64,000 nt of DNA, taken from NCBI RefSeq assembly GCF_001677475.2, contig NZ_CP015229.1; one strand, written 5' to 3'. Positions 4,650 through 5,486 of this stretch are shown here, one piece after another. The DNA is from Escherichia coli. GTDB taxonomy: Bacteria > Pseudomonadota > Gammaproteobacteria > Enterobacterales > Enterobacteriaceae. A program made the position numbers and the translations under genes. Every line of letters begins with the position of its first letter. Position 1 is the first letter of the stretch. Below the pieces are notes generated by a model. The model did no database searches. It saw only the letters and a list, made by a program, of their open reading frames with translations, and was not told the DNA's origin.

Positions 4650-5486
4650 TTAAATTTTTCCTTCACTACCACAGACGCCAATAATACGAGTTACGACTTC
4701 TTTCATGGCAGCCTTTGCGGGCTGCATATAGTGGCGAGGATCATTTGCCGCAGGATTGTTGTAGAAATATCCTTTTAACGCATCGGCAAACGCAATTTTC
4801 AATTCTGTCGCGACATTTACTTTACAAATACCGCGGCGAATACAGTGCTGAACGTCCTGTTCCGATAAGCCCGAAGCACCATGCAACACCAGCGGAATCT
4901 CCACTTGCTGACGGATCTGTTCCAGCCGCACAAAATCCAGTCGCGGTTCATGCGCATATAAACCATGTGCTGTGCCGATTGCTACCGCCAGGGAGTCAAA
5001 CTCTGCTGCTGCGGCTGGTAAGGTATAAGCTGAATCTTTTTCATCCACCCGCAGATCGTCCTCCTGGCCGCCAAGACGCCCTAGCTCGGCCTCAACGCTA
5101 ACATCAAAGCGATGGCAAAAGGTGGTAACTTCTTGCACTCGCGCAATGTTGTCTTCAAATGGCAAATGGGAGCCATCAATCATGACAGAACGGATCCCTG
5201 CGCGAACCTTGCTAAAAATGTCATCACTCTCTTCATGATGGTCGAGATGCAGGACTAACGGCAGGTTGTACTCGCGAGCCAGCGATTGTACTAACGAAAT
5301 TAAACTACCCACGCCGCCATAACGATAAGTACCCGGTGTTCCCGCCAGCATAACGGGAGAGCGAAGTTGTGCAGCGCTCTCAACGACTACCTGTAAAGTT
5401 TCAAGGTTATGAATGTTGAAAGCAGGGACGGCATATCCCTCTGACTGGGCTTTTTTCAGCATGTTTTTGCTTGAAATGATGTACAT
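4650..5486 (-). CDS. Class II ketose-bisphosphate aldolase (KbaY/GatY/FbaA family)
   Basis: 278 aa; AVPAFN, HLDHH and AIGTAHG motifs; close resemblance to tagatose-1,6-bisphosphate aldolases as I recall them. Confidence 0.85.

Follow-up and report, generated by a model that had tools for sequence, protein, structure and literature searches.

A tagY allele with a six-residue in-frame deletion in the published D-tagatose cluster of Escherichia coli

The closest described relative of the locus analysed here is the tag cluster of Escherichia coli Nissle 1917 (EcN), in which D-tagatose induces a six-gene operon more than 40-fold, and tagYAB more than 1000-fold (Ha et al. 2022, PMC9720028). Loss of the six-gene operon, or an in-frame deletion of tagD alone, abolished growth of EcN on tagatose; the cloned six genes conferred growth on tagatose on K-12, B and W strains; and pfkA was required for this growth while pfkB was not (PMC9720028). 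tagD was the only gene deleted singly in that study, and biochemical verification by activity assays was left by its authors to future work (PMC9720028). The gene names tagK, tagR and tagYABCDE are those of Park et al. 2025 (PMC12226905), who showed that TagR represses in a tagatose-responsive manner and predicted two operators and a CRP site. The transcription starts that they mapped lie 64 nt (tagY) and 11 nt (tagR) upstream of the respective gene. This arrangement explains the growth of some E. coli on the sweetener D-tagatose, notably members of phylogroup B2, to which Nissle 1917 and many extraintestinal pathogens belong, and the system has already been used for inducible expression.

In the proposed pathway, D-tagatose would be imported unphosphorylated by the binding-protein-dependent ABC importer TagABC, converted to tagatose 6-phosphate by TagD and then to tagatose 1,6-bisphosphate by the housekeeping phosphofructokinase PfkA, and the bisphosphate would be cleaved to dihydroxyacetone phosphate and glyceraldehyde 3-phosphate by TagY, a putative zinc-dependent class II aldolase. 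The operon would be repressed by the DeoR-type regulator TagR, acting at two operators that overlap the promoter, and would be under cAMP-CRP control. For the reaction of TagY, the sugar carried by TagABC and the extension of the EcN results to the present strain, the proposal is based on homology.

Three other systems provide useful comparisons. The K-12 aldolases GatY and KbaY (AgaY), from the galactitol and N-acetylgalactosamine operons, have in common with TagY the family TIGR01858, the fold, the HLDHH, GTAHG and LHGAS motifs and the presumed reaction. However, they belong to PTS operons in which gatY and kbaY adjoin gatZ and kbaZ, whereas tagY is accompanied by an ABC importer and a tagatose kinase without a Z gene, and the TagY substrate would be made by TagD and PfkA from free tagatose that had been imported unphosphorylated. 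The tagatose/galactitol pathways of Sinorhizobium meliloti and Agrobacterium tumefaciens C58 include a homologous ABC importer, a tagatose kinase and a DeoR-type regulator, but they use a GatZ-family 4-epimerase to convert tagatose 6-phosphate to fructose 6-phosphate and have no aldolase, whereas the E. coli route proceeds via tagatose 1,6-bisphosphate and TagY (PMC9720028). The place of tagE, the last gene of the E. coli operon, is held by the tagatose-6-phosphate 4-epimerase in the rhizobial clusters (PMC9720028). In the tagKTH-gatYZ systems of Klebsiella oxytoca and Salmonella enterica the final step is also carried out by a GatY-type class II aldolase, but tagatose enters through a PTS as tagatose 1-phosphate, a tagatose-1-phosphate kinase follows, and GatZ is present (PMC9720028).

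The DNA analysed here (the window) is a 64 kb stretch, the left-hand end of which carries the following genes, with percentages giving protein identity to EcN.

1..193, minus strand: tagE, 5' part only (first 64 codons), aldose-1-epimerase-family / DUF4432; cut by the window edge, matching the N-terminus of EcN TagE
190..1152, minus strand: tagD, predicted PfkB-family D-tagatose kinase (tagatose to tagatose 6-phosphate); best NCBIfam model NF049991, just below its cut-off; 99.7%
1174..2163, minus strand: tagC, ABC transporter permease; 99.4%
2164..3663, minus strand: tagB, ABC transporter ATP-binding protein with two ATPase domains; 99.0%
3724..4614, minus strand: tagA, periplasmic sugar-binding protein of the ABC importer, RbsB-like; best NCBIfam model RbsB (162 bits, below its cut-off), Pfam Peripla_BP_4 on the public contig L002; 98.6%
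4650..5486, minus strand: tagY, putative class II D-tagatose-1,6-bisphosphate aldolase, 278-aa allele, first gene of the operon; above the cut-offs of NF009374 and TIGR01858; 96.8% including a 6-aa gap
5829..6659, plus strand: tagR, DeoR-family, predicted tagatose-responsive repressor, divergent from tagY; best NCBIfam model AgaR, below its cut-off; 99.3%
6691..7626, plus strand: tagK, second PfkB sugar kinase, beside tagR; TagKinase 345 bits, below the cut-off; 98.7%

The order tagE-D-C-B-A-Y with divergent tagR-tagK matches that of strain IAI39 and of EcN. The cluster in the window has the accC-yhdT locus, gene order, orientation, promoters, CRP site and TagR operators in common with EcN, and it differs from the EcN cluster in tagY, which has lost 18 bp (residues 164-169) and otherwise encodes three substitutions. 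The seven complete tag proteins of the window are 96.8-99.7% identical to those of EcN, with TagY the lowest when its gap is counted; TagA, TagB, TagC, TagD, TagR and TagK are 98.6-99.7% identical and none is interrupted. Wider decay of the tag island in this lineage was not seen: the other genes are of full length and the regulatory sites are conserved.

The public contig L002 is 99.994% identical to window positions 1-15486, without gaps over 15,486 bp, and extends the view beyond the left edge of the window, where it carries the complete tagE (348 aa), followed by accC, accB and yhdH. The product of tagD scored 414.1 bits on the NCBIfam TagKinase model NF049991, just below the cut-off of 420, which may be why RefSeq labels it only as a 'sugar kinase'. 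The second kinase gene, tagK, was called mechanically as an ORF from 6616 that overlaps tagR by 44 nt; the RefSeq-equivalent ATG is at 6691 and gives a protein of 311 aa. TagK is 51% identical to TagD and cannot replace it (PMC9720028).

The tagY reading frame is a 278-codon, ATG-started ORF on the minus strand; the plus-strand translation of the same interval is full of stops. Its product scored above the cut-offs of the NCBIfam GatY subfamily model NF009374 (500.7 bits; cut-off 383) and of TIGR01858, tag_bisphos_ald (455.1 bits; cut-off 443.55), whereas the NCBIfam fructose-bisphosphate aldolase equivalogs and the KbaY equivalog all fell below their own cut-offs. Using query sequences from the annotated MG1655 record (GatY, KbaY, FbaA, GatZ and KbaZ), BLASTP identities of 63.6% to GatY, 56.0% to KbaY and 23% to FbaA were obtained. 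The first two agree with the 63.7% and 56.3% given for the EcN aldolase (PMC9720028), for which the reference entries are ECOLIN_RS18695 and HW372_RS02445.

The best solved structure for TagY was that of AgaY/KbaY, 1GVF (E 1.7e-98; Foldseek TM 0.92 with the AlphaFold model). In the 1GVF alignment His83, His174 and His202 of TagY are paired with His83, His180 and His208 of AgaY, which are reportedly the zinc ligands (Hall et al. 2002). Asp82 and Glu132/Glu134 are identical in the same alignment, the E-A-E-L-G motif is kept, and the columns of the zinc histidines, Asp82 and Glu132/Glu134 are at least 90% conserved among 122 aligned sequences. By sequence, the product of 4650-5486 is assigned to the GatY/KbaY family of class II tagatose-1,6-bisphosphate aldolases (PF01116), at a similarity far beyond chance, and the gene is very probably tagY, the aldolase gene that heads the published D-tagatose utilisation operon of some E. 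coli.

A preliminary description of the window had recognised this gene as encoding a KbaY/GatY-like class II aldolase at the head of an operon with a periplasmic-binding-protein ABC transporter. Both statements are borne out by the model scores and identities and by the presence of tagA, tagB and tagC directly downstream on the same strand. All six of the motifs that it quoted are present in the translation (an 11-residue motif at 17-27, HLDHH at 80-84, SVEAELG at 130-136, AIGTAHG at 169-175, LVLHGAS at 199-205 and KVNVATEL at 222-229), and the alignment that it proposed with GatY, KbaY and FbaA placed the protein closest to GatY and KbaY, with the active-site residues conserved. It had also contrasted the locus with paralogues that lie in PTS operons with a GatZ/KbaZ partner, which is the arrangement in K-12, and had seen no GatZ/KbaZ-like gene in the window, as was found here. 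The preliminary reading was supported on every testable point, but the layout of aldolase and ABC importer, which is real, had already been published as the EcN tag cluster (tagK-tagR / tagYABCDE), and its rediscovery adds nothing. The minus-strand orientation of the gene and the six-residue deletion were absent from the preliminary description.

The intergenic region between tagY and tagR was found to contain the following regulatory elements.

5513-5531, plus strand: predicted TagR operator tagO2; one mismatch to the published EcN sequence; single site in the window
5537-5555, minus strand: predicted TagR operator tagO1; two mismatches to the published EcN sequence; single site in the window
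5557..5600, minus strand: Ptag promoter; -10 TAGTTT at 5562-5557, -35 TTTTTG at 5583-5578, predicted CRP site TTCGA-N6-TCACG at 5600-5585
5783-5788 and 5805-5810, plus strand: Preg promoter of tagR; -35 TTCAAA and -10 TATAGT, respectively, read from the sequence

The hexamers of Ptag and Preg and the CRP motif do not differ from the published EcN sequences (PMC12226905), and the tagY transcription start, inferred at about 5550, falls within tagO1.

A search of 5,426 complete E. coli genomes found the 7.7 kb island in 1,422 (identity 95-99%; query coverage of at least 80% in 1,419), and it lies between accC and yhdT in IAI39 and Nissle 1917, the two genomes inspected. Its GC content is 45.7%, against 49.6% in the flank, which is in line with the horizontal acquisition that the authors of the EcN study proposed. 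Both the island and the adjacent yhdT to acrF region (window positions 1-20000) are at best 98.3% identical to any of the 5,426 complete RefSeq E. coli genomes, and the lineage of the window appears to be absent from the complete genomes searched. The Logan assembly ERR10434813 matches the window at 99.994% over 15.5 kb.

The length of the window TagY (278 aa) differs from that of the RefSeq TagY (284 aa), and alignment of both DNA and protein with IAI39 traced the difference to a single in-frame deletion of 18 bp.

4996..4997, minus strand: tagY deletion junction; VQRTQI removed, corresponding to residues 164-169 of the 284-aa protein

The deleted DNA is flanked by a 3-nt microhomology, CAA, and the placement of the junction is ambiguous by 3 nt. 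The equivalent segment of AgaY is VELTGV. At least 41 blocks of public assemblies encode the exact 278-aa protein (ANO91180.1 and others), invariably in the same context, and L002 carries the deletion too. These assemblies, together with the independent Logan assembly (ungapped over 15.5 kb), rule out a sequencing or assembly artefact. The deletion is not a common E. coli polymorphism either, as an ungapped match across the junction was found in none of the 1,409 complete RefSeq genomes that carry tagY. Internal deletions were likewise absent from the other members listed for the 90% identity cluster. The allele is a minor variant and has apparently gone unreported.

The constraint on the missing segment was assessed using relatives of TagY. 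From a search of 1.84 billion representative proteins, 117 of the full-length matches were aligned with EcN TagY, IAI39 TagY, GatY and KbaY, which made a set of 121 relatives (35-65% identity). The interval between Phe163 and Asp170 is exactly six residues long in 120 of the 121 and eight in the remaining one, and it is shorter in none. Within the segment, Thr167 is conserved in 108 of the 121 sequences, Val164 in 86, and Val or Ile at position 169 in 110.

AlphaFold places the segment of intact TagY (model pLDDT 96.5) in the C-terminal half of helix 157-167 and in the loop that connects this helix to strand 171-174, which leads to the histidine of the GTAHG motif. With the deletion (model pLDDT 92.5) the helix spans only 157-162, and the confidence for residues 131-160, a stretch that takes in the mobile loop preceding the helix, drops from 94/75/92 in the intact form to 77/50/62; the comparison of the two models yields a local loss of confidence only and cannot decide function. 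With respect to the element lengths of the (beta/alpha)8 barrel, the fold is retained in the model, with a TM score of 0.92 to 1GVF, but segment 164-169 is absent and the confidence drops locally. In these models, the deletion halves the helix that precedes the zinc-ligand strand, and this copy of TagY may be impaired as a consequence. If TagY is impaired, the cleavage would depend on GatY or KbaY encoded at other sites in the genome.

A rival reading, which bears on this copy and leaves the identity of the locus untouched, is that the 278-aa protein is non-functional or severely impaired and that the gene is in effect an in-frame cryptic pseudogene, in a lineage that either cannot grow on D-tagatose or relies on GatY or KbaY for the cleavage. 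The predicted loss of half a helix and its connecting loop, the six-residue spacing that is fixed in all but one of the relatives with several strongly conserved positions, the lower pLDDT around 131-160, and the lack of internal deletions among the other listed cluster members all argue for it. Against it, the deletion is in frame and the remainder of the protein differs from EcN TagY by three substitutions; the rest of the tag genes, like the regulatory sites, are intact; and the overall predicted fold is retained. Judging from the TIM-barrel fold, the segment would also be remote from the active site, on the N-terminal face of the barrel. The persistence of the allele in at least 41 assemblies fits a tolerated change, but it also fits a recent clonal loss. 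Taken together, these points bring severe impairment close to an even chance, although slightly on the doubtful side.

The corresponding proposal for the island as a whole, that the deletion inactivates or destabilises the TagY of this lineage in an otherwise intact tagatose island, making the lineage a natural experiment, is put forward tentatively, as a real possibility that falls somewhat short of probable. If it were true, either growth on D-tagatose would have been lost silently despite a normal-looking annotation, or the aldolase of the island would be dispensable through GatY or KbaY. A circulating allele without a conserved segment of fixed length also means that genome-based prediction of the tagatose phenotype may fail for this lineage.

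A second reading concerns the missing partner subunit: TagY might, as GatY and KbaY do, need a GatZ/KbaZ-type protein for stability or full activity and borrow the chromosomal GatZ or KbaZ, so that the absence of a Z gene would be only apparent. A Z gene hidden in the window or just outside it was ruled out. Searches by tblastn with K-12 GatZ and KbaZ found no homologue in the 64 kb window (best E 0.8-2.4), there is no gatZ or kbaZ to the left of the window on L002 (tagE, accC, accB, yhdH), and no PF08013 gene is found around the island in L002, IAI39 or EcN. A borrowed partner would be available, as gatZ and kbaZ are both annotated in K-12 MG1655 and every host used in the tag-cluster experiments carries gatYZ and kbaYZ; those experiments therefore do not establish that TagY is necessary or that it is independent of a Z protein. 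However, the island is without a Z gene in every genome inspected, and AgaY has reportedly been crystallised (1GVF) and assayed alone, which was also counted against a borrowed partner. The question has in addition lost some of its force because later work identified GatZ and KbaZ as C4 epimerases acting on fructose 6-phosphate and tagatose 6-phosphate, and not mere chaperones, the chaperone label having come from one study (PMC11907403). A dependence of TagY on a borrowed Z protein is considered unlikely on this evidence. The activity of TagY and its independence of a Z protein bear on the current reassessment of GatZ and KbaZ as epimerases and not aldolase chaperones.

The reading of TagY as a tagatose-1,6-bisphosphate aldolase is preferred by a wide distance over a different specificity. 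Assigning class II aldolases of this size from their sequences alone is difficult, and the PDB label KbaY has been attached to enzymes that are sulfofructose-phosphate aldolases (8Q57). The suggestion that TagY is a glycolytic-type fructose-bisphosphate aldolase or another phosphosugar aldolase (e.g., a class II sulfofructose-phosphate aldolase), with the island serving another sugar, is nevertheless already largely refuted and highly improbable. TagY is 64% identical to GatY, against only 32-34% for sulfofructose-phosphate aldolases and 23% for FbaA; every fructose-bisphosphate aldolase equivalog model was below its cut-off; and the operon, which D-tagatose induces more than 1000-fold, is, with PfkA, necessary and sufficient for growth on tagatose (PMC9720028). 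An FbaA-like glycolytic aldolase was ruled out by the FbaA identity and the model scores, and a sulfofructose-phosphate aldolase by the identities to that family and the EcN tagatose genetics.

To the right of tagK, the window consists of ordinary E. coli backbone: yhdT, panF, prmA, dusB, fis, yhdJ, acrS and acrEF, followed by rrnD and the ribosomal-protein operons. The rRNA operon in the rrnD position (23768-29119, minus strand) comprises 16S, two spacer tRNAs, 23S, 5S, a tRNA and a second 5S, and a match to the Rfam family StyR-44 lies at 27139-27247, between the spacer tRNAs and the 23S gene. Further along are an alpha-operon leader (42795-42906), ribosomal-protein operons and apparent gsp (type II secretion) genes, as judged by position and ORF sizes.
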